The position numbers and the translations under genes were made by a program. The notes beneath the pieces are model-generated. The model worked only from the letters and a program-made list of their open reading frames with translations. It was not told the DNA's origin and made no database searches. This document shows positions 2,238-42,700 of a stretch of DNA of 55,336 nucleotides, one piece after another. The stretch is from IMG/VR virus record IMGVR_UViG_2541047870_000005. The stretch is one strand, 5' to 3'. This DNA comes from a virus. Lineage: Duplodnaviria > Heunggongvirae > Uroviricota > Caudoviricetes. Each line of letters opens with the position of its first letter. Positions within the stretch are counted from its first letter, which is position 1.

Positions 2238-3104
2238 CTAAGCGAGGTTCTGGTTTTCAAATTGTTCCGGACTGAGGCCGCCACACCAACTGTGCCGCCG
2301 CCACCGATTGTAATCACATTCGATATAATTAAACACCGTTGCCCGCATTATTTCCCGGCTGATAAAGTGTTCTCCATGGATACATTCCACTTTCAGCGAA
2401 TGAAAGAAGCTTTCCACGCAGGCATTATCGTAGCAGCAACCTTTTGCGCTCATACTTCCACGCAGATTATGCCGCTTCAGTTGCGCCTGATAATCTGCTG
2501 AACAGTACTGGCCTCCACGGTCCGTGTGAACGATAACGTTCCGGGGCCTCTTACGCCGCCACAGCGCCATCTGCAGGGCATCGCAGGCCAGTTGCGCCGT
2601 CATGCGTGGCGACATTGACCAGCCAATAACGGCACGTGACCACAGGTCAATGACCACTGCCAGATACAGCCAGCCTTCATCTGTACGTAAGTACGTGATG
2701 TCTCCTGCCCACTTCTGGTTCGGGCCACTGGCGTAAAAATCCTGCTCCAACAGATTTTCTGACACAGGCAGGCCGTGTGCGCGGTAGCTGACCGGGCTGA
2801 ACTTCCGGGAGGCCTTTGCCCTCAGTCCCTGACGGCGCAGGCTTGCCGCCACGGTTTTTACGTTAAAGGGGTAACCCTGAGCACGCAGTTCATCCGTCAG
2901 GCGTGGGGCACCGTAACGCTGTTTTGACCGGGTAAAAGCCGCGAGGACAACGCTGTCGCAGTGTTGGCGGAACTGCTGACGCGTGCTTATCCTTGTCCGC
3001 CGCTGACACCACGTATACCAGCCGCTGCGGGCCACCCGGAGCACGCGGCACATTGCTTTGATGCTGAACTCAGCCTGATGTTTTTCAATAAAGACATACT
3101 TCAT
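2238..3104 (-). CDS. IS3-family transposase OrfB
   Basis: 288-aa ORF overlapping the 3' end of orfA in the -1 frame, as expected for the IS3 frameshift-fusion arrangement. Confidence 0.85.
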
Positions 3105-3406
3105 TTCAGACGATTCGCAAAGTATGTCGCGGCCTTTTGGAGGATAGCCAGTTCCTCTGCCTGCTCCGCCAGTTGCCGCTTCAGGCGGGCATTTTCAGCG
3201 GCCAGTTCACTTTCACGCTCTGACGAACTCATTTGTTGCTGCAGTTTGCTGCGCCACGCATAGAGCTGTGATTCATACAGGCTGAGTTCACGGGCTGCGG
3301 CAGCAACACCGATGCGTTCAGCAAGTTTCAGGGCTTCACTGAGAAATTCAGGCGAATGCTGTTTACGTTTTTTTACTGGTTGAAACTGTTTTGTCTTGTG
3401 AGTCAC
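3101..3406 (-). CDS. IS3-family transposase OrfA (HTH DNA-binding, leucine zipper); GTG start
   Basis: 101-aa ORF ...[38 protein letters not shown]...[16 protein letters not shown] closely resembles IS3 OrfA; the start codon at 3404-3406 is GTG on the minus strand. Confidence 0.8.
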
Positions 3407-3504: not shown

Positions 3505-3720
3505 TTAAAAATTCATATGGCCCTGACCATCTGGCAATGGATGTGGAGGGGCTGTGGCAATCACTGCAGGTGTCACAATAAACCGGACCACTGTTTCATG
3601 GGTAACAAAAGTGCTCCCGCAGTTAATATTTTGGCACTGGCAGTAACGCTCTTTGGTGCTTTCCGTTACTTGAAAACTGCTCCTTGTGTGCGCCGCATGA
3701 CCACACTTTGGACAATTCAT
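3505..3720 (-). CDS. ogr: Ogr-type zinc-finger late-gene transcriptional activator
   Basis: CPKCGHAAHTRSS...KERYCQCQNINCGSTF matches the Ogr/Delta C2C2 zinc-finger pattern; start taken at the internal Met (MNCPKCG), the ORF track begins at 3768. Confidence 0.8.
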   Translation of the reverse strand: MNCPKCGHAAHTRSSFQVTESTKERYCQCQNINCGSTFVTHETVVRFIVTPAVIATAPPHPLPDGQGHMNF

Positions 3721-3791
3721 CATATCCAGATCCCTACCTTTGCTATCAGAATCAATGCAATGATACACAAAATATCGATATTGAGAACCAT

Positions 3792-10629: not shown

Positions 10630-10735
10630 AGTGGCGAACCTCCTGATTGGATTAGGCTTCGCCCTATGTTGAAGTGATTGTGTCTGACAAGCAGCTAAGC
10701 GCAGTTGTACCGTTATTCACACAAAATGACGGTAT

Positions 10736-14796: not shown

Positions 14797-15103
14797 CGTT
14801 ATTCCGCCGCCCGGTCAGCTCCATCACCATAGAACCGTCAAAGTTGCTGTTGATGGTGATGGAATCCAGCGTCAGCCGTGGCTCCCAGCGACTCAGCGCC
14901 ACATACACTGCCGACATGACCTGCAGGCGTAATGCCGGATTTTGTGGCTGATCTATTAAAACCGACAGGAGGGAACCATATTCCCGGCGGGCAATGCGGC
15001 TACCCTGCGGTGTCAGCAGAATGTCCCGCACCGACTGGCGCAGATGATCAATATCAGTAATGACTTTGCCGCTGGTATTGTTCATCCCGCTATAAAGCGT
15101 CAT
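14744..15103 (-). CDS. W: Baseplate protein gpW-like
   Basis: 119-aa ORF between V and J. Confidence 0.7.
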   Translation of the reverse strand: MTLYSGMNNTSGKVITDIDHLRQSVRDILLTPQGSRIARREYGSLLSVLIDQPQNPALRLQVMSAVYVALSRWEPRLTLDSITINSNFDGSMVMELTGRRNNGVPVSLSVSTGAENGSD

Positions 15104-15744
15104 ACCGGGCCTCCGGTTGTATCGCCGCCTTTCAGGACGCCAGTATGCTGATGCGCATCAACCACAATCCCGTTAGAACTCATCGCACCGCCGCCCTGGG
15201 TAACGCCACCATTGATCACCACTTCGCTGTTAATACGCGTGCGGTCAGCCTCCAGCACAAACTCACAGGTTTTCAGGGTGATGTTGTCGGCAGCCTCAAT
15301 GACCATGGATTTGATGCCCCTGACATACCAGCGCCCGGTGGTGGGCTCGTATTCAAACCAGCCGCCGTCAGGATGTTCTGTCACGCAGGCGTCTGCCGAC
15401 GTCGACGGTGGCGCGAACTGATTCGAATAGACAGCGGGCAACGCAAAGGCGGTTTCCAGATTTCCGCCCAGACTCAGCAGCACCACCTGCTCACCTTCCG
15501 ATGGTCGCCACCATGTGCGGGCATTCCCGGCACGCAGCGTCAGCCAGCTGATCCAGTTGGTTTCAAGGTCGCCCGTTTTCACCCGGCAAAGCCAGTTTGT
15601 CCTGTCCACTTCGGTGACTACCCCAGTGCGGATCAGGTTGGTGATAAGGCGCATGATTTCGGTTAATTGTGCGTTCATGCTGACAATATTGTTTCTTAAA
15701 CTGAGTGATTGCATCGAAGTGGTTTTGTATGATTGCAGGCACAA
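15100..15744 (-). CDS. V: Baseplate spike/assembly protein gpV-like
   Basis: 214-aa ORF upstream of W, 4-bp overlap. Confidence 0.7.
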   Translation of the reverse strand: MCLQSYKTTSMQSLSLRNNIVSMNAQLTEIMRLITNLIRTGVVTEVDRTNWLCRVKTGDLETNWISWLTLRAGNARTWWRPSEGEQVVLLSLGGNLETAFALPAVYSNQFAPPSTSADACVTEHPDGGWFEYEPTTGRWYVRGIKSMVIEAADNITLKTCEFVLEADRTRINSEVVINGGVTQGGGAMSSNGIVVDAHQHTGVLKGGDTTGGPV

Positions 15745-15766
15745 GTTGTAACTAAGGAGGCGATTG

Positions 15767-16204
15767 ATGAAGTCTTGGAAAAACCGAGGATTTAAAAAAA
15801 GGGTTCTTGAATATGTTTACTGTTTCTCCGCTGCTCCATTTTTAGCCATGTTCTACACGTTGTCAGAAAACCAGCTGACAATGTTTATAATTTTCTTCAC
15901 TGTGAGTTTTTATCTCACTCTGATGGTATCCGTTTTTTTAACAAAACGAGGATTTAACAAAGTATTCAAAGAATTCTTTAATTTATTATGGAACTATGAA
16001 ACGGCCTTCGTTTTTTGCTATGGCCTTTATACTTATCTTTATAGAATTGATGGGCAGAAAACTTTATCAAACGTCCTTACCATTATGTTTTCAGCTCACC
16101 CATGGACACTTATTTTCGGCATCGGACTCTTGGTTTTCACAGTAATTTTCAGGTTTGCTCTGAGTGTCGCTGACTTGCTAGTTGAAGTTAAGTCAGATAT
16201 ATAA
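15767..16204 (+). CDS. AT-rich moron: predicted four-helix integral membrane protein on the opposite strand to the tail genes
   Basis: Strong Shine-Dalgarno taaggagg 8-9 nt upstream of the ATG at 15767; four hydrophobic segments; markedly lower GC than flanking V and S. Confidence 0.6.
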   Translation: MKSWKNRGFKKRVLEYVYCFSAAPFLAMFYTLSENQLTMFIIFFTVSFYLTLMVSVFLTKRGFNKVFKEFFNLLWNYETAFVFCYGLYTYLYRIDGQKTLSNVLTIMFSAHPWTLIFGIGLLVFTVIFRFALSVADLLVEVKSDI

Positions 16205-16228
16205 TGAAACAATACAACCATAGAATTT

Positions 16229-16678
16229 TTAACTATTTACCAGCCAATCACATAATATATCCTTGGTGAAATCTAAAACATCTTTGTTGCTTCCTAACAA
16301 TTTCCGCTCTGCATAACGGACCTCAGGTCCTTTGCGACTGACGCGATCACGCAGGCCGTAATGGTGAACACGGGCAATACGCTGTACCTTACCTTCAAAC
16401 TGCACGCTGGCAGAATCGGCGCTGGCGGCAGTTTTCAGGTATTTTGTGGTGCGAAGCTTTGTAAACATCTGACGTTTGATGCGCCCCTTTTTACTACGTG
16501 CTGTTACCCTTCGCGGTTCATAGCTGCTGCCATCAGGATTACGCTGCATCCTGATGTTCTGCTGCTGTGTCCGGCGCAGTTCCTGCGCCAGCTGGCGCAT
16601 CATGCGGCTTCTTGCGGCTGGCTCCAGATTCGCCAGCAAGGCACTCAGCCAGTCGTCCACCTTCTGCAATTCAGCCAC
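16229..16678 (-). CDS. S: Tail completion protein gpS-like
   Basis: 149-aa ORF; synteny R-S. Confidence 0.7.
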   Translation of the reverse strand: MAELQKVDDWLSALLANLEPAARSRMMRQLAQELRRTQQQNIRMQRNPDGSSYEPRRVTARSKKGRIKRQMFTKLRTTKYLKTAASADSASVQFEGKVQRIARVHHYGLRDRVSRKGPEVRYAERKLLGSNKDVLDFTKDILCDWLVNS

Positions 16679-17355: not shown

Positions 17356-17626
17356 GTTTCAGTTCCTCAATCCGGCGTTGTCGTTGTCTCAGCAGTGCAC
17401 TGGTCTGTTCTGCTTCGGCGTAGAGCCGCGCCTGCTCCCGATTGTTGGTTTCAGCCAGAATGGACAGACTGATCAGCTGACTATTTTTCTTCGTTAGTTC
17501 GTGCGCTTTACTTTTCAGCGCCGCGCGCTGCGTTTCGATGGTGTGGCTGGCGCTGTTAAGCCGCCACGACTGCCAGCCCAGCGCAACGAGTGCCAGCGCC
17601 GCCACTACCGCCAGCGCACGTGTCAT
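17198..17626 (-). CDS. lysB: LysB-like inner-membrane spanin (i-spanin)
   Basis: 142-aa ORF, N-terminal transmembrane helix then charged coiled-coil region, downstream of the endolysin. Confidence 0.7.
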   Translation of the reverse strand: MTRALAVVAALALVALGWQSWRLNSASHTIETQRAALKSKAHELTKKNSQLISLSILAETNNREQARLYAEAEQTSALLRQRQRRIEELKRENEDLRRWADTPLPADIIRLRKRPAFTGGAAYRQWLSASDAVSAGSGNAAH

Positions 17627-21663: not shown

Positions 21664-21805
21664 GAGCCGTGCTCCGTTAGAAAAAACTTACTGGAGCCTT
21701 ATGGTTGCGGTGATGGGTGCAGTGAAACAATGCGCGGTATTTGTACCGACAACCACACAAACCGCAGGCGGGGAAAGCCTTCATTCAAGGCTGTAGGTTT
21801 GTGCC

Positions 21806-23572
21806 ATGAACACCACACTGACACCCGCAGATCTCGATCCCCGTCGGCAGGCCATGCTGCTGTACTTTCAGGGATACCGCGTAGCCCGCATTGCTGAAAT
21901 GCTGGGCGAGAAAGTTGCAACCGTTCACAGCTGGAAAAAACGCGACAAGTGGGGTGACTATGGGCCGCTGGATCAGATGCAGCTCACCACCGCCGCACGC
22001 TACTGCCAGCTCATTATGAAGGAGCACAAAGAAGGGAAAGATTTCAAAGAGATTGACCTGCTGGCGCGCCAGTCTGAGCGCCACGCGCGGATCGGCAAGT
22101 TTAACAATGGCGGCAACGAAGCCGACTTAAACCCTAACGTCGCCAACCGCAATAAAGGCCCACGCCGTCAGCCGGAAAAGAATGTTTTCACCGATGAGCA
22201 GATTGAGAAGCTGGAAGAAATCTTCCATTCTTCCATGTTCAACTACCAGCGCCACTGGTGGGAAGCAGGAAAAACCAACCGCATCCGCAACCTGCTGAAG
22301 TCACGCCAGATCGGCGCGACCTTTTACTTTGCCCGTGAAGCCCTGATTGACGCCCTGCTTACCGGACGTAACCAGATTTTCCTTTCTGCCAGTAAGGCAC
22401 AGGCCCATGTCTTCAAACAGTACATCATCGACTTTGCCAAAGAAGTGGAGGTGGAGCTGAAAGGCGATCCGATGGTGCTTCCTAACGGGGCCACGCTTTA
22501 CTTCCTCGGCACCAATGCCCGCACAGCCCAGAGTTATCACGGCAACCTGTATCTGGATGAATATTTCTGGATCCCAAAATTCCAGGAGTTGCGCAAAGTG
22601 GCTTCCGGTATGGCTATTCACAAGAAATGGCGACAGACCTATTTTTCCACGCCATCCAGCCTGACCCACAGTGCTTATCCGTTCTGGTCCGGTGCGCTGT
22701 TCAACCGTGGACGCAACAAAGCCGACAAGGTGGACATCGACCTGTCCCACAGCAATCTTGCCCCCGGCCTGCTGTGCGCAGACGGGCAATACCGCCAGAT
22801 AGTCACCGTGGAAGACGCGGTGCGCGGCGGCTGTAACCTGTTCGACCTTGACCAGTTGCGCATGGAGTACAGCCCGGATGAATACCAGAACCTGCTGATG
22901 TGCGAGTTCGTGGACGATCTCGCGTCCGTGTTTCCGCTCAGCGAACTGCAGGCGTGCATGGTGGACAGCTGGGAAGTCTGGACCGACTTTCATGCACTGG
23001 CCCTGCGCCCGTTTGGCTGGCGCGAAGTATGGATCGGTTATGACCCGGCGAAAGGTACGCAGAACGGCGACAGTGCCGGATGCGTGGTGGTGGCTCCGCC
23101 AGCCGTGCCGGGCGGTAAGTTCCGCATTCTTGAGCGTCACCAATGGCGCGGGATGGACTTCCGCGCCCAGGCGGACGCCATCAAAAAACTGACCGAACAG
23201 TACAACGTGACCTATATCGGCATCGACTCGACAGGTGTAGGTCACGGGGTTTATGAGAACGTGAAAGCGTTCTTTCCTGCCGTCCGGGAGTTTGTTTACA
23301 ACCCCAACGTTAAAAACGCCCTGGTACTCAAGGCCTACGACATTATCAGCCACCGCCGTCTGGAGTTTGACGCCGGGCACACCGACATTGCGCAGTCATT
23401 CATGGCAATCCGTCGCGCCACCACCGCCAGTGGCAACCGCCCAACCTATGAAGCCAGCCGCAGCGAAGAAGCCAGCCACGCCGATCTGGCCTGGGCAACA
23501 ATGCATGCACTGTTTAATGAACCGCTGCAGGGCGAATCCGCCAATACCAGCAATATTGTGGAGATTTTTTGA
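21806..23572 (+). CDS. P: Terminase ATPase (large) subunit gpP-like
   Basis: 588-aa ORF divergent from O, followed by the portal gene with a 4-bp overlap. Confidence 0.85.
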   Translation: MNTTLTPADLDPRRQAMLLYFQGYRVARIAEMLGEKVATVHSWKKRDKWGDYGPLDQMQLTTAARYCQLIMKEHKEGKDFKEIDLLARQSERHARIGKFNNGGNEADLNPNVANRNKGPRRQPEKNVFTDEQIEKLEEIFHSSMFNYQRHWWEAGKTNRIRNLLKSRQIGATFYFAREALIDALLTGRNQIFLSASKAQAHVFKQYIIDFAKEVEVELKGDPMVLPNGATLYFLGTNARTAQSYHGNLYLDEYFWIPKFQELRKVASGMAIHKKWRQTYFSTPSSLTHSAYPFWSGALFNRGRNKADKVDIDLSHSNLAPGLLCADGQYRQIVTVEDAVRGGCNLFDLDQLRMEYSPDEYQNLLMCEFVDDLASVFPLSELQACMVDSWEVWTDFHALALRPFGWREVWIGYDPAKGTQNGDSAGCVVVAPPAVPGGKFRILERHQWRGMDFRAQADAIKKLTEQYNVTYIGIDSTGVGHGVYENVKAFFPAVREFVYNPNVKNALVLKAYDIISHRRLEFDAGHTDIAQSFMAIRRATTASGNRPTYEASRSEEASHADLAWATMHALFNEPLQGESANTSNIVEIF

Positions 23573-24600: not shown

Positions 24601-24627
24601 AATAGGGCAGATACTGCCCTATTTTAA
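24601..24627. terminator. Bidirectional rho-independent terminator between convergent portal gene and cargo operon
   Basis: aaaa-tagggcag-atac-ctgccctat-tttt: 8-bp stem, 4-nt loop, A-tract on one side and T-tract on the other. Confidence 0.7.
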
Positions 24628-25476
24628 CCAAATATTATAATCCAATCTTTCTACGTATCTTGAAATAACGGCTAGAGCAATTGCTTGCCCTACACTTGTT
24701 AGTTCAATTCCTTGATAGTTGCTCTTTGAAAATTTTTCTAAAAATGCAGACACATGAGGGGCAACTAACTTAAGATTTGAAATATACGCACTCTTATCTT
24801 TTATATCAGTCGGATATTTATCCATGAAATAGTCTTCAACATCTATCCCTAAAAAAGTATTCCATGAACAAGCCCCTGCATATTGAATGTGATATATCTG
24901 GGCTTGAGACAAATTAAACCCATTAGTATACATTGGTTCAAGATTTCTAAAATTGCGCTCCAACAAATCCAATCGAACACCATTAACAGGATCTTTGATC
25001 TCAACATTCTTGAGAAGAAAAACTATCGTTATAAGTGATATTTGTTGCTGTGTTAACTTTGGAACTACAGTAACTGCCTCCGTTAAAACTATATCTCTAA
25101 AATCGTCATTGTTATTGGAGACTCGTTCAACTAACAACTGAGAAAGCACATCCATATTAGCTTTCTTTCCCTTCCTGGCTGATGACTTTAATGCCTCAGT
25201 CAATGTCGCCTGAACGTCCGGATCGCAAAATTTATCAATAATCAATCTATCAACGTTTTTTGTTAAATCCGAAACGACACGCTCTTCAAAATCTTTTGCA
25301 TTCTCTTGAGCTGCAGCATAAGCAACATCTTTCAATTTTGGGAACTGATTTTCGAAGAGAATGTTGAATAGTTCTCTAACCTCGGAAAACGACATCCCTG
25401 AAACATTTACATTATTTCCAGCTTGAATTGCATACGAATTATTACCTATTTGTTGCTTTTGTTTATCACTAAACAT
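24619..25476 (-). CDS. Hypothetical 285-aa protein, AT-rich cargo between portal gene and cos-like site; second gene of a two-gene operon
   Basis: Long AT-rich ORF 9 bp downstream of the small membrane-protein gene; no recognisable motifs. Confidence 0.7.
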   Translation of the reverse strand: MFSDKQKQQIGNNSYAIQAGNNVNVSGMSFSEVRELFNILFENQFPKLKDVAYAAAQENAKDFEERVVSDLTKNVDRLIIDKFCDPDVQATLTEALKSSARKGKKANMDVLSQLLVERVSNNNDDFRDIVLTEAVTVVPKLTQQQISLITIVFLLKNVEIKDPVNGVRLDLLERNFRNLEPMYTNGFNLSQAQIYHIQYAGACSWNTFLGIDVEDYFMDKYPTDIKDKSAYISNLKLVAPHVSAFLEKFSKSNYQGIELTSVGQAIALAVISRYVERLDYNIWLK

Positions 25477-25485
25477 ATATCCTCC

Positions 25486-25731
25486 TTATTTTTTATCACC
25501 TGTATTTATACAATCAATTTTAATATCACCGCCAGCCTGGACACCAATTGAATTATCACCAACTGATTGACTCATAGAATTATATTTATTTTTTGTAGTG
25601 ATAAGTAATCCAGCTAAAGCGCTAACTGCAGCCAAAAATGCAACAATAGAATCAAAACCAGGATCCATATAAAGCCATAATCCAGCAATCAATGCCAGTA
25701 TACATGTAATGACTATTGCAAAAATTTTCAT
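25486..25731 (-). CDS. Small membrane protein (81 aa, two predicted TM helices); first gene of the cargo operon
   Basis: Hydrophobic segments IFAIVITCILALIAGLWLY and IVAFLAAVSALAGLLIT; C-terminal motif resembles the N-terminus of the downstream protein. Confidence 0.6.
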   Translation of the reverse strand: MKIFAIVITCILALIAGLWLYMDPGFDSIVAFLAAVSALAGLLITTKNKYNSMSQSVGDNSIGVQAGGDIKIDCINTGDKK

Positions 25732-25785
25732 AAGTTCTCCTTCTAATGGAAGTGGTTATACCGAAAACAATTTCCTTTTACAACC

Positions 25786-25935
25786 ACGCTCAGCGCGCGC
25801 TCGTATCCCCGCCACGCCTGCCCGCTTTGTATAGCGGTTTTCATGCACTCGCATGGCATAAGGGAAACCTTGCCAGAACTGGCGACCCTCAGCGAAAACG
25901 ATCTTCAAACGATCATGCGGATTCATGCAGCATAG
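25786..25935. other. Putative prophage cos (packaging) region
   Basis: GC-rich non-coding segment homologous to 42890-43033; minus strand reads GGCGTGGCGGGGA, matching my recollection of the P2/186-family cohesive end. Confidence 0.5.
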
Positions 25936-26138
25936 ACAGGCACTACTGAGCAATAGCGCTTGAGTTCAGTCAGATATGAGTCCTCAATGTAATACTAATA
26001 CATCTTAACCGTTCATCATTATTCACATCGGGCTATGTAATTACAGAAAAACTTTTCACAATCAATTTTATACTGGATTATTTCAGTTTATTGTATAATT
26101 CATGACGCATGCAAATTGACATTAATTCAGGAGACAAA

Positions 26139-27050
26139 ATGACATTAATTGTAGCTGGTTTCGAAAAAGATGGAACAATTGTTTTTTGCGGGGACTCACT
26201 AATAACAACAAAAGCAAATGGAAGCACTGTAAAATTGACATCGTCCTTTAGAAAAATAATACCACTAGAAATTATTGTGCGAGTACCGGAAATCGATCCA
26301 AGTGGAAAAATCATAAATTACATTGAAAGCCTTTGCCAACATCGCTGCATGATTGCATTTGCAGGAAGCACGCTAGTTTCTCAACATATTATAAATTCTA
26401 TACAAGGTCATCTGAAACAAATAAAATACACATATGATTCTGGCACATATGACTATTCAGAAGGATGCATAAAGGGTGCTGGCTATAAGTTAATAATGGG
26501 TTGTGAAGATAACAAAAGCGTTGAGGAAACCTATTGGAACGAAGATATGTTTGTTGAGCCAGTAAAGAATGCGAACGAACTTATTAATAAAAATTTTCTA
26601 CGCAACGTCTTTAGCCACTGCATACAGAAAACCATGAATGAATTTTACATTAATATTAATGAGGAATTTAATCCAGAGTGGTTTGCAAGCGATTTCATTG
26701 TAGCTCTGTCTTGCTATGAGACTAAAAAAAACCATCTTTTTACCTTTAAAATGGAATTTAATGAGTCAGGGGTCAATCTTATAGAAAAAGAAATTAATAT
26801 CAATGAACTGGCAATAATTGGCATTTCAAGATATAGCGAAGAAATAATTCAAGCATATCAAACTCAAAAAGCGACCCTCAGTACATCTGAAATTCTCAGC
26901 CAAGAGATTACTAAAGCAATCATAGACAATGAAAGCATTGATCTTAGAGAAATAGGAGATCCTGTCGTATTAAAAAAATTCAATCAACATCGTGAATTAC
27001 GTGATGAGCAAAAACACTGGAGGTGCAATACTCCTCGAGAAAACCAATAA
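26139..27050 (+). CDS. HslV/proteasome beta-subunit-like (Ntn-hydrolase fold) protein, about 303 aa, AT-rich cargo gene
   Basis: SD aggag 5 nt upstream of ATG 26139 (ORF track starts at 26109); MTLIVAGFEKDGTIVFCGDSLIT...VKL...IAFAGST...LAIIGISRYSEEIIQAY parallels HslV [21 protein letters not shown]...KK...AGFAGGT...LIAIGSGGPYAQAAARAL (recalled from memory). Confidence 0.5.
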   Translation: MTLIVAGFEKDGTIVFCGDSLITTKANGSTVKLTSSFRKIIPLEIIVRVPEIDPSGKIINYIESLCQHRCMIAFAGSTLVSQHIINSIQGHLKQIKYTYDSGTYDYSEGCIKGAGYKLIMGCEDNKSVEETYWNEDMFVEPVKNANELINKNFLRNVFSHCIQKTMNEFYININEEFNPEWFASDFIVALSCYETKKNHLFTFKMEFNESGVNLIEKEININELAIIGISRYSEEIIQAYQTQKATLSTSEILSQEITKAIIDNESIDLREIGDPVVLKKFNQHRELRDEQKHWRCNTPRENQ

Positions 27051-27077
27051 ACGCCTCGCTATACTCGTTGTTCAACC

Positions 27078-27112
27078 TTGCTGACGCGAGAATAAAATTC
27101 TCACGTCAGCAA
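27078..27112. repeat. 13-bp inverted repeat (one mismatch) with 9-nt spacer between convergent genes
   Basis: ttgctgacgcgag-aataaaatt-ctcacgtcagcaa; no flanking T-tract, so terminator or protein-binding palindrome. Confidence 0.5.
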
Positions 27113-27123
27113 CGTTCCTGCTG

Positions 27124-27312
27124 CTAACCGAGAAGATCCATTGAGCGGTTGTATTCGTGGCTTCTGATTTTTGCCATGAGTTCATCAGTCAATTCAGAAA
27201 CCCACTGCAGAGCCAGCCCCTTCTCTTCATCATTACACTCACTAGCCGCTACAAGCTTAAGAAAAAAATCAATGCGCTGGAGCTTCAAAGACTCCAAAAA
27301 ATAGTCCTGCAT
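27124..27312 (-). CDS. Small hypothetical protein (62 aa) downstream of replication gene A
   Basis: Short AT-rich ORF; no motifs. Confidence 0.35.
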   Translation of the reverse strand: MQDYFLESLKLQRIDFFLKLVAASECNDEEKGLALQWVSELTDELMAKIRSHEYNRSMDLLG

Positions 27313-27464
27313 CTTTCCTCCTATGACACCAAAGCAATACTGTATATATAACTACTATTTATATTTACAGTATATAATAATCTTACTGATGTAAAACGTT
27401 TTTTTACGTTCATCAGCCTGATATGCCTGGTATTATTAAGAGCACAAATTGTTAACCCGCGTAA

Positions 27465-29879
27465 TTAATACAGATCCCGCCACTTATCATCTTCCTGCAA
27501 ACGCTGGTTCCGATAGAAGATACGCAGGCCTGCTCCTGACGGAATACTGCCGCCGCGAAGGAGTAAATCGACCTCTTTCTCGCTGCCATCAAATCCTCTG
27601 GACTTCAGTTCATAGACGAGCTGCTGTCGCTGATGGTCTGTAATTCGCTGTTTGTAGTCTTTACGCCGTTTCGGTTTCACCAGGCGTAACCTTGCAGCCA
27701 GTTCCCGGCGCTCTTTTTTGCTCATACTGTGCAGGTAATCGTGCAACTCCTTGTCATCCATGCGGGTAATGTCCGTTCTGGTATCCCCATCAGCTGATTT
27801 GTCTTTCCCTTGTTGGTTCAAATTTTCAGCAAGGGGACAGTTATTGCCACGAGTCCAAGGGGCGCAAGCGCCCTGGTCGGCTGCCGCCTCCTGAACGTCA
27901 ACGGCCTTACGAACCATTTTCCACTTCACCGCATGAGTGCAGATCTTGCCCTCTGCAATGGGTGACCAGATGCCATAAATACGAATACCGTGATCGCCAT
28001 AGGCGGTCGGTTCTTCGTTGATTTCATAAGCAGTTCTGATGAGGTGATATTTGCGGGGAACCAGTACGCCGCCCTGCTTCATGATGTAGGTGGCAAAACA
28101 ACCAGCATCAGCAGCAGCCAGGATTGCATCAAGGCGCGGGTTATCCAGTACCGGCGCACCTGCTTTTTTGTCCCCCTGTTGCCTTGCCGCCTGACCAGCC
28201 AGCAATCGCAGTTCACGGTAAGCCTGACGCCCCGGAATGCCAAAGAAGCGGAATTGCTGAACACGATGCAGAGACGCCCAGGCATTAACGTATTCAGCGT
28301 TATCACGCAGGGATTTACCCGTTTCCTTGCTGATCTCGCCAGCCAGACCACGCCCGTCAATGTTCTTACTGATGTATTTCGCGATGTAGCTTGTTGGCGT
28401 ACCTTTGCGCGGGTTTATCAGCTCAGACTTAAAGCGTGGTCCCGTGTTATTACCCAGCTCCTCGCGGTCTTCACGAATGGCAAACTTACGCAACAAAGCA
28501 GTAATGGTGCGGCGATCTTTTTTGCGCATAAAACACAACAGATGCCAGTGAACTGTACCGTCATGATGCGGCTCAGCCACCCGCACGCCATACCAGCGCA
28601 ATCCGGCTTTGTGCATCGCCTTACGAAATGCAGCAAACATGCCGACCAGATAATCACTGCTTTGTCTTACCGTCGCATTTGTCCAGGTCGGGTTGGGCCT
28701 GCCGTTATTTAGCGTGGAATGGAAACGTGACGGACAGGTGATGGTGTAGAAAACGGCGCAGTCACCGCGCATTTCCGCGATAAGCTCCAGACCTTTAACA
28801 CAGGCCATCATCTCATTGCGGCGATGCGCAGGGTTGCTGCTGCTGGCGTTTACCACATCCTCCATGTCCAGCGTGTCGCCGTCTTCGTTCACCAGTTCAT
28901 GAGAACGGAAAAACTCCAGTGACTTGCGGCGCTGCTCACGTTTATGCATCACGGCTTCATAGCTGACATAGGGAGATGCTTTTTTGCTGACCAGGCAAAC
29001 AGCACGCAACTGCTCTTCCCGCCATTCGCAACGCATCTTCCACAATTTCCGATACCACCAGTCGGCGCACAGCATACGCGCCAGCGACCCCGGAATGAGT
29101 TCATAGGGCACGGGTTTACGGCGGTTTCTTTTCCGGCGGAGTTGCTCAAACGCAGGCGGTATGACATCCAGTCGCAGGGTTTCTGCTGCCACCTTTTCCC
29201 ATGTCTTGCGGATTTCTTCTGGCTTAACATCATCGGTGGCATACAAATCGCCACAAGCAGCATCAAGGCACATGCTCATATGCGCAGCTACCAAGGTGGA
29301 CAGGCGTTTCACCTGATCCTGACTCATTTCAGGCAGAATCAGCAGGCCATCCAGCCCTTCATGGCTTGCCATAAAGCGAAAAGAAGTGGATAGCTGACTG
29401 TCGCGTACATGCTCCAGCCGTTCCAGACATGGCTTAATCGTCTCACGCAAATAGCGGGAATAAGCCTTTGGCCTGCCCAGGCTGCTGAAGTATTCAATAC
29501 GTTGCATCAGCGGCTTGCTGATATGGGAAGGCTGGGCGTTAACGTCCGCCAGAATGACCATGTCTGGATTAAAACGCTGCTGCTCATGCGCCAGCTTTGC
29601 CCAGCTAATGAGCTTATCCTGCTCCATTTCGCGTTGGACAGGATCACGGGATTCATTAAAGAAATAACGCTCCCAGACCTGAGCACTCAGTGCCTCGCGG
29701 CGCAGCTGTTCCTGCTCGTTATCGGCAGCGTACAGAGTGATCAGGTTTGAAAGCGCAGAAACCGGCGCGACTTCCGCCGGGTCCAGATAAGGGTTAATGG
29801 CCTTTTTCGGGCTGTTCCATGAGAATGCTGCGGCGGCCTCGTTAAAGCCGCTGCAGTTGTTCATATCAGCATGGCTCAT
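27465..29879 (-). CDS. A: Replication initiation protein gpA-like (rolling-circle endonuclease)
   Basis: 804-aa ORF in the position of P2/186 A; contains YIAKYISK-type tyrosine motif. Confidence 0.8.
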
Positions 29880-33857: not shown

Positions 33858-34877
33858 ATGACCATCAGGAAACAGCCGAACGGAAAATGGTTGTGTGAGT
33901 GCTACCCTAACGGGCGGGACGGCAAGCGCGTGCGCAAGCAATTTGCGACGAAAGGCGAAGCCGTAGCATTCGAAAACTTCACCATGGATGAAGTAAACAA
34001 AAAACCATGGCTGGGGGAAAAGGAAGATCGGCGGCATCTGTCAGAAGTGATAGAGCAATGGCACTCACTATACGGGCAGACGCTCGCAGACCCCAAACGC
34101 CTGATGGCGAAACTTAGAATTATCTGTAATGGCCTGGGCGACCCTATCGCCTCAGAGCTGACCGCCGGAGATTTTACGAAATACCGTGAAGCGCGATTAA
34201 AAGGTGAAGTGCGAAATGAAGATGGCGCGCTTATGTCGCCAGTTAAGCCCCGAACGGTAAACCTCGAACAACGCAACCTATCATCAGTTTTTGGGACTCT
34301 GAAAAAACTGGGCCACTGGTCAGCCCCTAACCCGCTCGCCGGTCTGCCAACATTCAAAATCGCAGAGGGTGAACTGGCATTCCTGACCCCAGAAGAAATT
34401 AAACGCCTGCTGGATGCCTGCGCGGATTCTCAAAGCCCCAGCCTGCTGATGATTGCAAAAATATGCCTAGCTACTGGTGCGCGGTGGAGTGAAGCAGAAA
34501 ACCTGCAGGGCCATCAGTTATCAAAATACCGCATCACTTATACCAAGACGAAGGGCAAGAAAAACCGTACCGTGCCGATATCTCAGGATCTGTATGACGA
34601 ACTCCCCAAGAACAGAGGGAAGTTATTCACCCCATGCAGAAAAGCTTTTGAGCGTGCAGTTAAACGAGCTGGTATCGACTTGCCAGAGGGACAATGTACC
34701 CACGTCTTGCGCCATACATTCGCCAGTTACTTTATGATGAATGGAGGGAATATTCTTGTACTAAGAGATATTTTAGGCCATTCAGATATAAAAATGACTA
34801 TGGTCTATTCTCATTTTTCACCTGAGCATCTTGAAGATGCTGTAACAAAAAACCCTTTATCATCACTAGCGATTTAA
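33858..34877 (+). CDS. int: Tyrosine integrase (P2/186 Int family)
   Basis: 339-aa ORF after cI; C-terminal catalytic-region motifs (HVLRHTFAS, LGHSDIKMTMVYSH). Confidence 0.85.
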   Translation: MTIRKQPNGKWLCECYPNGRDGKRVRKQFATKGEAVAFENFTMDEVNKKPWLGEKEDRRHLSEVIEQWHSLYGQTLADPKRLMAKLRIICNGLGDPIASELTAGDFTKYREARLKGEVRNEDGALMSPVKPRTVNLEQRNLSSVFGTLKKLGHWSAPNPLAGLPTFKIAEGELAFLTPEEIKRLLDACADSQSPSLLMIAKICLATGARWSEAENLQGHQLSKYRITYTKTKGKKNRTVPISQDLYDELPKNRGKLFTPCRKAFERAVKRAGIDLPEGQCTHVLRHTFASYFMMNGGNILVLRDILGHSDIKMTMVYSHFSPEHLEDAVTKNPLSSLAI

Positions 34878-34881
34878 CATA

Positions 34882-36093
34882 ATGAAAATTAATAAAATTA
34901 GTACCACAGATTATGTAGCAATGCTTAATGAAATATTATTCGAAATAGAGTCCAAACCACTATTACAAGCTCCTTATCTCGCGGGAAATAATATCATTAA
35001 AGATTTTAACAATAGGGTTAAATGTTACCTAGAAGTCATAAACAAGATTTACAGTAAAAACCCTCACAACCTTGTAATTCGTGAAATAAAATCAAAAATA
35101 AAAAGCACAAAAACACTCTCGGATAAAATTTCAGAAACACTTAGATTATATTTAAACGGTAAAATCAAAGAATCTTACCTAACATTTGATCACGCTATCA
35201 CCAAGACAAATATAAATGACCACATCTATAATATGTCCGTTCCATTAAGTGTATTTTGTCATCCTGGAAAACCTCTATTTCGCGTAAGAAAAAGCGATCA
35301 AATAATAAAAGAAAGGCGTGATATCTTTCATATTCCTTTTTCTAAACGTTATCTTGTGAATGCACAAAGATACTCAGTCTCAGGCCTTCCTTGTTTATAT
35401 TTAGGAACCTCTATTTTTGTATGTTGGCAAGAAATGGAAAAACCAGACTTTGATAAATTATATGTATCTTCATTCATCACAGAGTCTGGTTCATCACATA
35501 GAATACTTAACCTTGGTTATAATTTGAGATCAGCATTGAACATAAACACCTTAGCATGGCTGTTAGATAATGATACTGAAGGAACTATGAATAGGGTCAT
35601 TTCGAACTTAATTTCCTGGCCACTTGTGTTAGCCTGTAATTATACAAAACAACATAAAAACTCTAGTTTCAACCCTGAGTACATAATCCCCAACCTTCTT
35701 ATGCAATGGCTCAGCAGCAATGAAAATAAGGGCATAGCCGGTATCGCTTATCGCACGACTAAAATTCTCAATCAAAAAGATAGTGATATTGGTATTAATA
35801 TAATCATGCCACCTAAAATGGATAATATTTTGGATTCTGGTTATGATTACTGCCCACACTTACTAAATATATTTAAATTTACCAAACCTGTTTCATGGCA
35901 AGTATTTAGCACTTTAAACGTCAAGACCGATGGTATGGATGAAGATAGACTCATAATGGGAGGACCAACTCCAGCATCAGGTACAATTGAAGATTTTGAT
36001 GAATCGCTAGTGGAATATTACAATAATACCTCATTCAAAAAAGTTCAATTGTTAATTCATAAAATGATGAAGCATGATTATCTTGAGCCTTAA
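34882..36093 (+). CDS. RES-domain-like protein (403 aa) with about 150-aa N-terminal extension; AT-rich cargo
   Basis: Segment RYSVSGLPCLYLGTSIFVCWQE reproduces the spacing of the RES-domain core (R-W-N-x-P-G-x-P-x-L-Y-x-x-x-S...E) as I recall the consensus. Confidence 0.5.
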   Translation: MKINKISTTDYVAMLNEILFEIESKPLLQAPYLAGNNIIKDFNNRVKCYLEVINKIYSKNPHNLVIREIKSKIKSTKTLSDKISETLRLYLNGKIKESYLTFDHAITKTNINDHIYNMSVPLSVFCHPGKPLFRVRKSDQIIKERRDIFHIPFSKRYLVNAQRYSVSGLPCLYLGTSIFVCWQEMEKPDFDKLYVSSFITESGSSHRILNLGYNLRSALNINTLAWLLDNDTEGTMNRVISNLISWPLVLACNYTKQHKNSSFNPEYIIPNLLMQWLSSNENKGIAGIAYRTTKILNQKDSDIGINIIMPPKMDNILDSGYDYCPHLLNIFKFTKPVSWQVFSTLNVKTDGMDEDRLIMGGPTPASGTIEDFDESLVEYYNNTSFKKVQLLIHKMMKHDYLEP

Positions 36094-36126
36094 GTGGCGG
36101 CGTTTTGGCGGTAGAGTATTAAGAGG

Positions 36127-37080
36127 ATGCAGTTACAAAAAACCTCTAACTCCATTATAGAAATAGGAAGTGATCTGATGAATAACATCATCTATACAAA
36201 CGAACAATATGAAATCGAAAATCTAAGTATAGCCCTGTATGCAATTTTCGATAAAATAAAAGAAAGGATTTCCATCGCCGAAGAATCTAACATTTACACT
36301 ATCAGAGATGTTGGTCATAACTCGGAATCTCAAGTTTGCAAAAACACTTTTAATAAATTAACGCAATTTTTTGATTCAAACATTCTTTACATCCAAGACT
36401 GTGAAGTCTTAATTTCATATATAACAGAGTGTAGTTTGGAACTCTCTGTTATAGCGCAACAATTTTATGAAATACTCTGGAGCGATTTGTTAATAACCAC
36501 ACCAGACAAAGATTTTAAAGGGATTTTAGTAGCAAAATCGCCAAAAACAAGCTTGCTATTTTCTTTGTTAAGCATGCTATTTATAAAAATGAATAGTTTG
36601 TTTGACTACGTTACTAAAATCTCCTTTGAATTATTAAAGAGTAACTTCCCAATCTCTAAATACAAGAAATTAATATCCAAAAATAAATTATACGGCAACT
36701 ATAAAGAATTAGTTTTTTCGACAACAACGGATACCATATTTGAAAATAGCAATTTTATAAACACTGTAACATCATTACGAAATCATATAATTCACCACGG
36801 TTATATAGATGAGCACCCAAAGGTATATGTTGAAGTGGAAAATGGCATTGCATTTGGGAGATTTGTACTATTCCCCGATTTGAATGAGAGTGGAGGACTG
36901 GAAAATTGCATTAACAGAACTTTATTCTATTCAAAAGAAACAAAGATTGATGAAAAATTACCTGACTTAATTAAGGAATGCCAAATTAAAGTAATTAACT
37001 CGTTGAAGGTACTAATTAAAGATCATGAAGCATTAGAAGATTCAAGAAAGACTGGCGGCACTTTGGCGGCAGAGCATTAA
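36127..37080 (+). CDS. Hypothetical 317-aa protein with HEPN-like Rx4H motif (Abi-like candidate); AT-rich cargo
   Basis: Motif LRNHIIHHGY; gene lies 33 bp downstream of the RES-like gene on the same strand. Confidence 0.45.
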   Translation: MQLQKTSNSIIEIGSDLMNNIIYTNEQYEIENLSIALYAIFDKIKERISIAEESNIYTIRDVGHNSESQVCKNTFNKLTQFFDSNILYIQDCEVLISYITECSLELSVIAQQFYEILWSDLLITTPDKDFKGILVAKSPKTSLLFSLLSMLFIKMNSLFDYVTKISFELLKSNFPISKYKKLISKNKLYGNYKELVFSTTTDTIFENSNFINTVTSLRNHIIHHGYIDEHPKVYVEVENGIAFGRFVLFPDLNESGGLENCINRTLFYSKETKIDEKLPDLIKECQIKVINSLKVLIKDHEALEDSRKTGGTLAAEH

Positions 37081-37165
37081 AAACGAGTAAAATGAACAAA
37101 CACCGAGTAATACCAACCTACTGTTTTAAAAAGCAAATCATTGTTTTTGTTATAGTTAAGATAGT

Positions 37166-37210
37166 ATGTAGGAATTTCGGACGCGGGTTCAACTCCCGCC
37201 AGCTCCACCA
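37166..37210 (+). other. ssrA: 45-nt 3' terminal fragment of tmRNA gene ssrA ending in CCA (integration core / att copy), not a complete ssrA
   Basis: atgtaggaatttcggacgcgggttcaactcccgccagctccacca matches the E. coli ssrA 3' end; sequence upstream does not continue the ssrA match. Confidence 0.8.
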
Positions 37211-37394: not shown

Positions 37395-38594
37395 GTGGCA
37401 CGGACAACACGCCCCCTGACCAACACCGAAGTTCTGCGCGCGAAAGCGTTAGAGAAGGATCTAACGCTGCATGATGGCGATGGGCTTTTCCTGATAGTGA
37501 AAACTAGCGGCAAGAAACTCTGGCGCTTTCGCTATCAACGCCCAGCAACAAAACAGCGGACTATGATGGGACTTGGTGCTTTTCCTGCCCTTTCTCTTGC
37601 TGATGCCCGAGGGTTAAGAGCAGATTACCTTGCCCTATTAGCCAACGGAATCGACCCGCAAATTCAAGCTGAAGTTGCAGAGGAACAGCAGCAAATCGCT
37701 CTGGACAGTATTTTTTCGACGGTCGCCGCTAACTGGTTCCAGCTCAAAAGCAAAAGCGTTACCCATGATTACGCTAAAGATATATGGCGTTCACTGGAAA
37801 AAGACGTATTCCCCACCATCGGGGAGATCCCTGTCCAGCAAATCAAAGCCCGAACACTGGTTGAAGCCCTTGAACCGATCAAAGCTCGTGGGGCGCTGGA
37901 GACGGTGCGCCGGTTGGTGCAGCGTGTTAACGAGATAATGATTTATGCCGTAAATACTGGTCTTATTGATGCCAATCCAGCATCAGGCATTGGAATGGCC
38001 TTTGAGAAGCCAAAAAAACAAAATATGCCTACGTTGCGCCCAGAAGAATTGCCTATGCTGATGCGTTCTCTCGTCATGTCAAATTTGTCTGTTCCGACTC
38101 GCTGCCTCATTGAGTGGCAACTCCTGACTCTAGTTCGTCCTTCTGAGGCTTCCGGTGCTAGGTGGGCTGAGCTCGATCTCGATGCAAAGCTCTGGACTAT
38201 CCCAGCTGAACGAATGAAGGCTAAGCGGGAACACATAGTCCCTCTATCTCCTCAGGCATTAGAGATTCTTGATGTGATGAAGCTAATCAGTGCCCATCGT
38301 GAACATGTTTTCCCGAGTCGGAATGACCCAAAGCAACCAATGAATAGCCAGACGGCAAATGCTGCTTTAAAAAGGATTGGATTTGGTGGTAGATTGGTTG
38401 CTCATGGATTGCGTTCAATTGCCAGCACCGCATTAAATGAAGCGGGTTTTAATGCAGATGTAATTGAGGCTGCTCTTGCACATAGTGATAAAAATGAAGT
38501 GCGCAGAGCATATAATCGTTCAACTTACCTTGAGCAACGAATAGGACTTATGAATTGGTGGGGCCAAAAAGTGTACGAGCGCAATCAATATTAG
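37395..38594 (+). CDS. P4-type tyrosine integrase (IntA-like); GTG start
   Basis: 399-aa ORF about 185 bp downstream of the ssrA core, as for intA next to ssrA in E. coli K-12; integrase-like N-terminal region. Confidence 0.85.
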   Translation: MARTTRPLTNTEVLRAKALEKDLTLHDGDGLFLIVKTSGKKLWRFRYQRPATKQRTMMGLGAFPALSLADARGLRADYLALLANGIDPQIQAEVAEEQQQIALDSIFSTVAANWFQLKSKSVTHDYAKDIWRSLEKDVFPTIGEIPVQQIKARTLVEALEPIKARGALETVRRLVQRVNEIMIYAVNTGLIDANPASGIGMAFEKPKKQNMPTLRPEELPMLMRSLVMSNLSVPTRCLIEWQLLTLVRPSEASGARWAELDLDAKLWTIPAERMKAKREHIVPLSPQALEILDVMKLISAHREHVFPSRNDPKQPMNSQTANAALKRIGFGGRLVAHGLRSIASTALNEAGFNADVIEAALAHSDKNEVRRAYNRSTYLEQRIGLMNWWGQKVYERNQY

Positions 38595-38623
38595 TTAACT
38601 TGTTATACATGGAGATATAGTTC

Positions 38624-39082
38624 ATGGAGAATAATCTAGATAATTTATGTTATGAATTCTTTAGAGAGTTTTCACGTTATGAATATTGCCTTAAGGCATG
38701 TGGACTTCATCATAAAATAAAAGATGCTAAAGCGAACTGGGATGAGTATGCAAAGCAAGTTTCTGAAATCATAAATAACACAACTGATCCAGAGCTAATT
38801 GCTGCTATCACCTACTTTAAAGAACACCCACCCAAAAAACAAATCATAGAAGATGACTCTTTAGTTTGGGATGATTCTTTACCACAAGAAAAAGATTTAG
38901 CAAAATTTCTTTTTTTGTTAATCCGCCGTGTAAGAAACAATCTTTTTCACGGAGGAAAATTTAACGGGAAATGGTTTGAACCTGAACGTAGTGAGGCGTT
39001 ACTGCAACATGGCCTTGTTATTTTGAGGCATTGCGGCACAAGGCATAGTGAAGTAAGCAAAGCCTATTCTGGAATAGCCTGA
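38624..39082 (+). CDS. Hypothetical 152-aa protein with HEPN-like Rx4H motif
   Basis: Motif RRVRNNLFHGG; AT-rich; first cargo gene after int. Confidence 0.45.
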   Translation: MENNLDNLCYEFFREFSRYEYCLKACGLHHKIKDAKANWDEYAKQVSEIINNTTDPELIAAITYFKEHPPKKQIIEDDSLVWDDSLPQEKDLAKFLFLLIRRVRNNLFHGGKFNGKWFEPERSEALLQHGLVILRHCGTRHSEVSKAYSGIA

Positions 39083-39096
39083 GCGGTGTTATAAAA

Positions 39097-39143
39097 GAGA
39101 AGTTTTTGTTACTGGAAGAATGATAAAATTCAAAAACTTCTCT
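39097..39143. terminator. Long inverted repeat between convergent genes (candidate bidirectional terminator)
   Basis: agagaagtttttg ... caaaaacttctct, 13-bp arms, 21-nt spacer. Confidence 0.4.
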
Positions 39144-39174
39144 ATTGATTGTTTAAAAAATCGTCTAAATAAGA

Positions 39175-41757: not shown

Positions 41758-41758
41758 T

Positions 41759-42700
41759 TCAACTCTCCAATGCTTTAATTAAACTAGCCCTAAATGCTTT
41801 TACTGAAGGAAAAGGAAGAATAAAAACATGCATAGCAAAGCGATCAAGTTTTTTATTAACTATACCACCTTGCACACTAGTTGACCATTTCCCGACTTTA
41901 GTATTAATCAAAGCAACTAGTTCACTGATATCAATTGAACTGGGCCCTTGTGGATAATCTTTAAGATCAAACCCAACTAAGCATATTCCTCTGTATTCCA
42001 ATTTATTAAAATCCGGGCTATCAGGATCTAAGAATCTTTTCAACGCTTGTTCTAGTTCTATATCATCAACATTTAAGTGCGACTCCAGCAACTGCATATC
42101 ACGTGTCTCAGCGCCTTCTATTCCCATAGAACTTTGAAGTAATGGAGCTATACTATCCATACACTCAGAAATACCTTTGCTCAGATTGGAATAGAGTTTA
42201 GACTCGCCCCAGTATAAACATAATTTTTTATTATCTTTATCTACGCCTATATGTATTCCATCTGCACCATGGTAATGCATTTGAGAACTCGTTTTCAGGC
42301 TCATTTTGCAAATAATTTGTGGAAATCTAAGGAATTGCTCTGCAAATAAAAAAAGAATAAATTCACCGCCTTCGCCACTATTTGCAAGCCTAGTAAATAA
42401 TTTTTTTGCTTGATTTGCTAATTTTGTTATTTTCGCTGTTGATTGTGTTTCATTAAAATATTGCACTGCCTCATTGATTTTTTTCCTTGGAATAGCATAA
42501 TCAACTACTTTATCGTTCAAGAATTGGATTAACGCGTCTACCCGAGGACGTCCATTGCCATCAAGATTAAGGCAATGAAAATGACAAGTTGCATTTGTAT
42601 TTTCAATCAATGAATTAACTTTAACTTCACTAAAATAACTATTTAGTGTTTGACCATCATCTCTAATCAGATTTTCAAGCGCGACATGCAGTGCATCCAT
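41759..42700 (-). CDS. hamA: HamA-like protein with PD-(D/E)xK-type motif (Hachiman-type effector candidate)
   Basis: 313-aa AT-rich ORF immediately upstream of the helicase; GIHIGVD ... LYWGESK resembles a PD-(D/E)xK nuclease signature. Confidence 0.5.
   Translation of the reverse strand: MDALHVALENLIRDDGQTLNSYFSEVKVNSLIENTNATCHFHCLNLDGNGRPRVDALIQFLNDKVVDYAIPRKKINEAVQYFNETQSTAKITKLANQAKKLFTRLANSGEGGEFILFLFAEQFLRFPQIICKMSLKTSSQMHYHGADGIHIGVDKDNKKLCLYWGESKLYSNLSKGISECMDSIAPLLQSSMGIEGAETRDMQLLESHLNVDDIELEQALKRFLDPDSPDFNKLEYRGICLVGFDLKDYPQGPSSIDISELVALINTKVGKWSTSVQGGIVNKKLDRFAMHVFILPFPSVKAFRASLIKALES

Follow-up and report, generated by a model that had tools for sequence, protein, structure and literature searches.

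P2-like phages have three recognised moron regions, of which the interval between the tail completion gene S and the baseplate gene V is one (PMC6823313, citing Christie & Calendar; PMC3091744, citing Nilsson et al.). In the annotated P2 genome S and the O-operon terminator are followed by the non-essential orf30, which runs on the opposite strand, and then by the pV activator-binding site and V, with V transcription starting at the V ATG. Surveys of cargo hotspots (Rousset et al. 2022, PMC9122126; bioRxiv 10.1101/2024.10.15.618418) concentrate on the old/tin and Z/fun positions, and the S-V interval is not treated as a hotspot in them. Here we describe an S-V junction in a 55,336-nucleotide stretch of DNA (IMG/VR record IMGVR_UViG_2541047870_000005), the whole of which we refer to as the window, and the family of small membrane proteins to which its cargo gene belongs.

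The window contains an apparently complete P2-like prophage running from ogr (3505-3723) to the integrase gene (33858-34877), as judged from the order of its open reading frames and from Pfam matches that include Ogr_Delta, a CI-type repressor, an integrase and a tail-fibre assembly protein. Among deposited phages its closest relatives are the Klebsiella phages KP12 and 4LV2017, the Escherichia phage 500465-1, and Cartapus (Peduoviridae, Elveevirus), and its gpV is 97% identical to those of KP12 and Cartapus. The S-V junction has the same gene order and orientation as the orf30 locus of P2, with S, a low-GC open reading frame on the opposite strand, the pV activator site and V, and its features are as follows.

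15100-15678, minus strand: gpV baseplate spike, first gene of the V late operon (Pfam Phage_base_V, 7e-18, and Apex)
15705-15733, plus strand: candidate weak sigma-70 promoter, GTGATT-17 nt-TATGAT (own scan, 8/12 matches; -10 element within the activator dyad)
15726-15743, no strand assigned: TGT-N12-ACA dyad, putative Ogr/Delta-type activator site of the late pV promoter (conservation and P2 annotation)
15754-15760, plus strand: Shine-Dalgarno sequence AAGGAGG, 6 nt 5' of the cargo-gene ATG
15767-16204, plus strand: cargo gene, an open reading frame of 438 bp (145 aa) for a predicted four-TM inner-membrane protein (N-in/C-in)
16229-16678, minus strand: gpS tail completion protein, last gene of the O late operon (Pfam Phage_tail_S, 3e-40, and P2 operon annotation)
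16229-16291, minus strand: 3' end of the gpS gene (last 20 codons and stop), GC 0.30, part of the exchanged cassette
15679-16291, no strand assigned: low-GC exchanged block, or cassette, reaching from the pV promoter region through the cargo gene to the last 20 codons and stop of S (composition)
3505-3723, minus strand: homologue of the late activator Ogr, expected to bind the dyad (Pfam Ogr_Delta, 9e-21)

The cargo gene is divergent from V across a gap of 88 nt and convergent with S across a gap of 24 nt (the S stop is at 16229), and it is the sole gene between V and S in the window. An initial annotation had called it a four-helix membrane-protein gene on the strand opposite to its neighbours, and this is borne out as a prediction for a protein of 145 aa, with V and S both on the minus strand. 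Its placement of the gene in the middle of the late tail operon was wrong: the gene lies between the end of one operon (S, in the O operon) and the start of another (V), as in P2.

The insert stands out in composition. In 300-nt windows the GC content over 15700-16300 is 0.34-0.35 against 0.55-0.60 on both sides, and the cargo gene itself, already noted as much lower in GC than its neighbours, has a GC of 0.35 where the neighbouring genes have 0.52-0.58. The deficit is present at all three codon positions (0.36/0.31/0.38 at the first, second and third, against 0.58/0.49/0.66 in V), and the low GC is thus not only an effect of the hydrophobic amino acid composition. The open reading frame is a real gene and not a product of chance: shuffling the insert yields an open stretch of at least 150 codons in just 2 of 5000 shuffles, the five other frames of the gene contain 7-18 stops each, and full-length homologues are known down to 21% identity with the frame open in every member. 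The ratio of nonsynonymous to synonymous change (omega) is 0.44 between the window and a Citrobacter homologue, a comparison that includes only 37 substitutions. The start codon is an ATG at 15767, with an in-frame TTG at 15764, and the consensus-like Shine-Dalgarno sequence described initially is the AAGGAGG upstream of it; other family loci have purine-rich, Shine-Dalgarno-like blocks at the equivalent place. A terminator-like hairpin within the gene (15857-15884) was considered and set aside, as such hairpins occur at the chance rate (1 against 1.3 expected) and by eye the Citrobacter stem has a mismatch. The gene also contains a 19-nt direct repeat (15781-15799 and 15943-15961, 89% identical and 162 nt apart) encoding NRGFKK in the N-terminal tail and KRGFNK in a cytoplasmic loop; it is restricted to the subfamily of the window and Citrobacter, and could reflect duplication of a two-TM unit within the gene, or chance.

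The cargo gene is variably present. It is absent from KP12, the Kp48xx phages and 500465-1, in which the flanks are 95% identical to those of the window and the V-S gap is an empty 68 bp, and the Cartapus junction carries an unrelated 176-aa open reading frame on the same opposite strand. The phage backbone is found in 1043 of 5426 complete E. coli genomes, and just six of the 1043 have the cargo gene. Natural lysogens include E. coli GF130 (NZ_CP172140) and ETEC-2265 (NZ_CP023346). We sampled 40 E. coli hits at even steps, 33 of which matched both flanks; 20 of the 33 are empty and 13 hold other cargo on the opposite strand, so that about 40% are occupied. The E. coli cargo at this junction includes TIR-domain, SIR2-family, FRG-domain and DUF6216 proteins (in H100, H105, H129 and H102/H111/H121/H122), together with several hypothetical proteins. 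The junction is therefore variable, mostly an empty 68-bp gap, and the gene is not universally conserved at this position.

A homologue in Citrobacter tells us something of how the gene travels. Citrobacter sp. S2-9 has a protein of 86% aa identity at the same V-S junction, and between the E. coli and Citrobacter loci the cargo gene has a dS of 0.16 (91.6% nt identity), whereas V and S have dS values of 0.76 and 0.66 (83-84% nt identity). Because the cargo gene is closer than the genes that flank it, the cassette must have moved between phages that had already diverged. Identity between the window and Citrobacter is about 0.9 from approximately 15620 to 16340 and about 0.8 in the flanks, and the C-terminus of gpS, which falls within this block, is nearly the same in the window and Citrobacter but different in KP12, Cartapus, BL21 and JA0257. 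More generally, the last 20 or so residues of gpS, beyond a conserved LLG, are mosaic among the window, L001, L002, L004, L032, L033 and other loci, and at many occupied junctions the corresponding DNA is low in GC and specific to the cassette; in BL21 the DUF6216 coding sequence overlaps the 3' end of S by 59 nt. These mosaic ends indicate that the junction of cargo exchange is often inside S. No direct repeats flank the insert, which rules out a transposon-type insertion and points to recombination rather than transposition.

We conclude that the cargo gene is almost certainly a moron at the known orf30 hotspot of a P2-like prophage, because it is absent from close relatives, is rare in E. 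coli, lies at a junction whose cargo varies, and has a homologue closer than its flanks. It lies between the S stop and the pV activator site, is present in some relatives and absent from others, and differs in composition from its surroundings. The initial annotation had also read the gene as a moron, and its absence from the closest phages, its occurrence in 6/1043 E. coli backbones, its foreign composition and its dS of 0.16 against 0.66-0.76 all uphold that reading.

Several other parts of the window are variable or of unusual composition. A second low-GC island (24601-27460, GC 0.33-0.38) occupies the classical old/tin defence hotspot, between the portal gene Q, which ends at 24600, and the replication gene A (27465-29879), and holds two open reading frames.

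24619-25476, minus strand: island open reading frame 1, 285 aa, no Pfam or PADLOC match
26109-27050, plus strand: island open reading frame 2, 313 aa, no Pfam or PADLOC match

Just outside ogr, at the prophage end, there is an IS3-family insertion sequence (2238-3406) with orfA at 3101-3406 and orfB at 2238-3104 (rve, HTH_21). Beyond the integrase there are low-GC blocks (0.31-0.36) at 34882-37200 and 38400-42600, with large open reading frames at 34882-36093, 36127-37080, 39175-41757 and 41759-42700, and these may be another island adjoining the prophage. The lysis cassette has a second presence/absence polymorphism: a lysA-like membrane gene is missing between endolysin gene K and lysB in the window (17623-17626) and is present in KP12 (L001, 3639-4016) and in an Enterobacter prophage (L005, 5481-5858).

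By sequence similarity the cargo protein belongs to an unnamed family of 141-166 aa proteins of Enterobacterales prophages, and it is the definition of this family that is the new part of the present analysis. A phmmer search of 1.84 billion cluster representatives returns nine relatives of 141-162 aa that match end to end (E values of 5e-39 to 3e-4), and a profile search of 5.8 billion proteins returns 20 clusters (2e-53 to 6e-24). In an alignment of 26 sequences M1, K68, W75, N76, F83, L122 and R129 are invariant and N72, T79 and Y85 nearly so. The family can be recognized by the motif K-x3-N-x2-W-N-x-E/S-T-A-x2-F-x-Y-G in TM3 and by an invariant Arg within F/L-R-x3-S of TM4, both of which are present in the cargo protein. 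Members with a named host come from E. coli, E. albertii, Citrobacter, Salmonella, Enterobacter, Pantoea and Pectobacterium and, on hundreds of contigs, from the Klebsiella pneumoniae complex; the annotations listed for named members are 'hypothetical protein' or 'uncharacterized membrane protein', with one UniRef label of 'DUF4199 domain-containing'. DNA and protein searches with three members as queries found none in 50,697 deposited phage records, and a search of a plasmid collection gave nothing useful. The GC content of every family member is between 0.29 and 0.38.

The family is strongly associated with the V-S junction. At least 21 of the 25 distinct family loci examined, which span 21-99% identity, are in this position, including 16 of 19 IMG/VR loci together with loci in Citrobacter, Enterobacter, Pantoea and one metagenome. 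Their geometry is that of the window, divergent from V across a 77-92-nt gap containing the dyad and convergent with S, and this fidelity to the junction persists where gpV is only 64% identical to that of the window. Most family loci have no partner gene, and in 3 of about 20 a second cargo gene follows the family member on the same strand.

L026, 3966-5924, same strand as the family gene: Old-family ATPase/TOPRIM nuclease (PADLOC Old, 5.6e-71)
L008, 5544-6995, same strand as the family gene: ApeA-like HEPN protein (weak match below the Pfam cutoff)
L022, 4672-5896, same strand as the family gene: the same HEPN gene in three pieces

The exceptions are of two kinds: a Pectobacterium island that also has AlpA and an H-NS-like gene, and three loci (L017-L019) that look like decayed P2-like prophages in which the family gene has been kept while V, S, and the lysis and head genes have been lost. 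In L017 (3700-6000) just 17 codons of V are left, along with the pV promoter region and the family gene, the portal gene, the C-terminal part of the terminase, and Schlafen-type cargo, and the remnant adjoins the integrase of another element and a tRNA-like att fragment. In L018 the family gene is accompanied by a terminase fragment and the portal gene and then by RelA/SpoT and GmrSD cargo; the family member of L019 belongs to the same protein cluster as that of L018.

The cargo protein is predicted to be an inner-membrane protein with four TM segments and both termini in the cytoplasm, and hydropathy, the positive-inside rule and an AlphaFold2 model concur in this. There are strong hydrophobic segments at residues ~37-59 and ~113-135 and moderate ones at ~13-32 and ~70-93. 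Lys and Arg residues are concentrated in the N-terminal tail (six) and in the second loop (four in residues 60-69), with none or one in each of the other two, periplasmic, loops. The AlphaFold2 model, built with 11 homologues, is all-helical (pLDDT 76.6, pTM 0.66), with helices at 9-32, 35-60, 64-94, 100-110 and 112-138. In this predicted arrangement the cytoplasmic halves of TM3 and TM4 are where the conserved residues gather (K68, N72, W75, N76, E78, T79, F83 and R129), and TM1, TM2 and the periplasmic loop are variable; the predicted periplasmic exposure is tiny. Searches with the protein give no match in Pfam at E values up to 1 and none among the families of PADLOC-DB 2.0 at E values up to 10; the best NCBIfam (E = 4.5) and PHROGs (E = 0.04 over 29 residues) hits are not significant. 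A sequence-profile search of the PDB gives no match, Foldseek of the model against the PDB and BFVD finds nothing at E < 1, and an Rfam scan of 15400-16600 gave nothing useful.

The signals around the gene bear on how it might be expressed. The dyad at 15726-15743, whose centre is some 56 nt 5' of the V ATG (15678), is common to the window, KP12, Cartapus and nearly all of the family loci compared, although it is degenerate in L022; P2 has an equivalent annotated activator-binding site for pV. By analogy, the dyad is expected to be the pV activator site, retained beside the cargo gene. Further TGT-N12-ACA dyads are found upstream of FI (10706-10723) and in the O/P divergent region (21742-21759 and 21800-21817), but the pattern is not enriched over the whole window (16 matches against 14.9 expected), and its meaning at V follows from position and conservation between phages and not from its count. 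We note that there is no Shine-Dalgarno sequence 5' of V in either the window or KP12; if transcribed as annotated in P2, V would have an mRNA that lacks a leader and starts at the ATG.

For the cargo gene itself, a consensus scan reveals neither a promoter 5' of the gene nor a terminator 3' of it. The initial annotation had supposed an independently expressed gene, and of the signals that this implies a terminator did not emerge, while a promoter survives as the weak GTGATT-17-TATGAT candidate of our own scan; the equivalent sigma-70 candidates in other family loci are not conserved in position. Independent expression of the gene from its own promoter is plausible on this evidence. Given the layout, any such promoter would have to overlap the pV control region, and binding of Ogr should interfere with it. 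P2 has an annotated terminator after S, whereas none is detectable in the window, and O-operon transcription would probably run antisense through the cargo gene.

These observations suggest a model for the role of the gene. In a lysogen it would be transcribed weakly from a promoter overlapping the pV activator dyad and translated efficiently from the consensus Shine-Dalgarno sequence, and the protein, at the inner membrane, would protect the lysogen from other phages, either by excluding superinfecting phages or by acting as a defence effector. Once lytic growth began, expression would be switched off by Ogr, bound over the -10 element, and by convergent transcription of the O operon in the absence of a terminator after S. 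The position, the cassette nature, the family membership, the topology prediction and the fidelity of the locus enter this model as observed parts, and the expression pattern and function are what we infer from them. Taken whole (a hotspot moron, expressed in the lysogen, protecting it from phages at the inner membrane and switched off in lytic growth), the model falls a little short of an even chance. Its central proposal, that the protein is expressed in lysogens and acts in exclusion or defence at the inner membrane, is a tentative one whose chances we place clearly below even; it is favoured because the hotspot holds defence genes among its cargo, the gene has an opposite-strand, self-translated design, it is retained in prophage remnants, and its product is predicted to be in the membrane. 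Against it are the weak and positionally variable promoter candidate, the lack of similarity to any known exclusion or defence protein, the predicted cytoplasmic placement of the conserved face, the small share of loci (3 of about 20) with an Old or HEPN neighbour, and the unrelated cargo that the hotspot also carries. The roles put forward in the initial annotation, superinfection exclusion or lysogenic conversion, are thus plausible candidates. The broadest form of the proposal is that the family constitutes an unrecognised single-gene inner-membrane anti-phage or exclusion system, specific to the Peduoviridae S-V junction across Enterobacterales, on in lysogeny, off through Ogr and antisense transcription, and kept for the host as the prophage decays; this is conjectural and rather unlikely to hold in full.

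The same moron signature would be expected of a lysogenic-conversion factor outside phage defence, acting in envelope stress, transport, colonisation or immunity to a toxin or bacteriocin, and giving the lysogen a benefit in its niche. Retention of the gene in prophage remnants is consistent with this, as are its wide distribution among Enterobacterales of the gut and of plants (in E. coli, Klebsiella, Citrobacter and Pantoea) and a conserved cytoplasmic face that would suit interaction with a host protein. However, there is no domain or fold to indicate such an activity, and the neighbours at the hotspot are of defence type rather than virulence type; we regard a conversion factor as unlikely, though it is the best of the alternatives.

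A further, improbable alternative is that the protein damages membranes as the effector or toxin of an abortive-infection or toxin-antitoxin-like module, silenced in the lysogen (for instance by H-NS acting on AT-rich DNA or by antisense transcription) and released upon infection. The protein is small and very hydrophobic, its DNA is AT-rich across the whole family, the gene converges on the O operon and no terminator separates the two, and in some loci it is upstream of a same-strand Old or HEPN gene. But 145 aa and four TM helices make it far larger than the type I toxins, most of its loci have no partner gene, and comparison with lambda RexB shows no relationship (hhalign probability 0.16%).

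It is very improbable that the gene encodes a lytic-cycle accessory protein (for lysis timing, tail assembly or DNA injection) not expressed in the lysogen. Such a role could account for the fidelity to the V-S junction across V proteins diverged to 64% identity and would suit the proximity to the lysis cassette, and P2 LysA is also a small multi-TM protein. The gene is, however, on the strand opposite to every late gene, and the Ogr geometry is wrong for it, as transcription that started divergently at 55 nt from the centre of the dyad would begin within the open reading frame. It is also absent from about 99% of the E. coli prophages with the same backbone and from the viable KP12 and Cartapus, and is kept in remnants that have no lysis or tail genes. 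That it replaces LysA is ruled out by locus L005, which has both LysA and a family member. Finally, that it is a non-functional or spurious open reading frame in an AT-rich spacer, as might be argued from the bare 'hypothetical protein' annotation, the lack of a promoter in the consensus scan and an omega only moderately below 1, is scarcely credible given homologues of 21-99% identity that are full-length, share invariant polar residues and keep the frame open in every member, the stops that fill the other frames, the shuffle result of 2/5000 and the consensus-like Shine-Dalgarno sequence.

Cargo at the orf30 site is textbook P2 biology, and finding it there is by itself ordinary. What is of more interest is that the S-V site of a widespread lineage of Enterobacterales prophages behaves as a real cargo hotspot, with TIR, SIR2, FRG, Old and HEPN proteins and several membrane proteins, and that an unnamed membrane-protein family can now be defined with a clear motif and a predicted topology and is strongly tied to this position. 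As a single gene of 438 bp for which natural strains with and without the gene exist, it is a cheap candidate for anti-phage screening.

The S-V site resembles the old/tin and Z/fun hotspots of P2 in that all are small, high-turnover cargo loci between conserved phage genes, and it shares with them cargo of defence type (Old, HEPN, TIR and SIR2); it differs in its genome position, and the cargo of the window has no known defence domain. The product of P2 orf30 is, like the cargo protein, encoded by AT-rich DNA (GC 0.34) and has about three hydrophobic segments, but it has 261 aa against 145 aa, and the two are unrelated (hhalign probability 0.18%). The DUF6216 protein of the P2-like prophage of E. 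coli BL21 is similarly at the same junction and on the same strand, with a GC of 0.33 and a multi-TM character (3-4 hydrophobic segments), and is a 268-aa protein also unrelated to that of the window (hhalign probability 0.6%). Lambda RexB is close in size (144 aa against 145) and likewise has four TM helices and a prophage-borne, non-essential gene, but there is no homology, its gene is in the immunity region and not among tail genes, and there is no adjacent RexA-like partner here. HK97 gp15, T4 Imm and P22 SieA are small prophage- or phage-encoded inner-membrane superinfection-exclusion proteins, and HK97 gp15 is a moron embedded among tail genes. The cargo protein resembles these in being a small, predicted inner-membrane protein; it has no sequence or fold match to any Pfam or BFVD entry, and its predicted conserved face is cytoplasmic, unlike that of exclusion proteins that act through a periplasmic domain.
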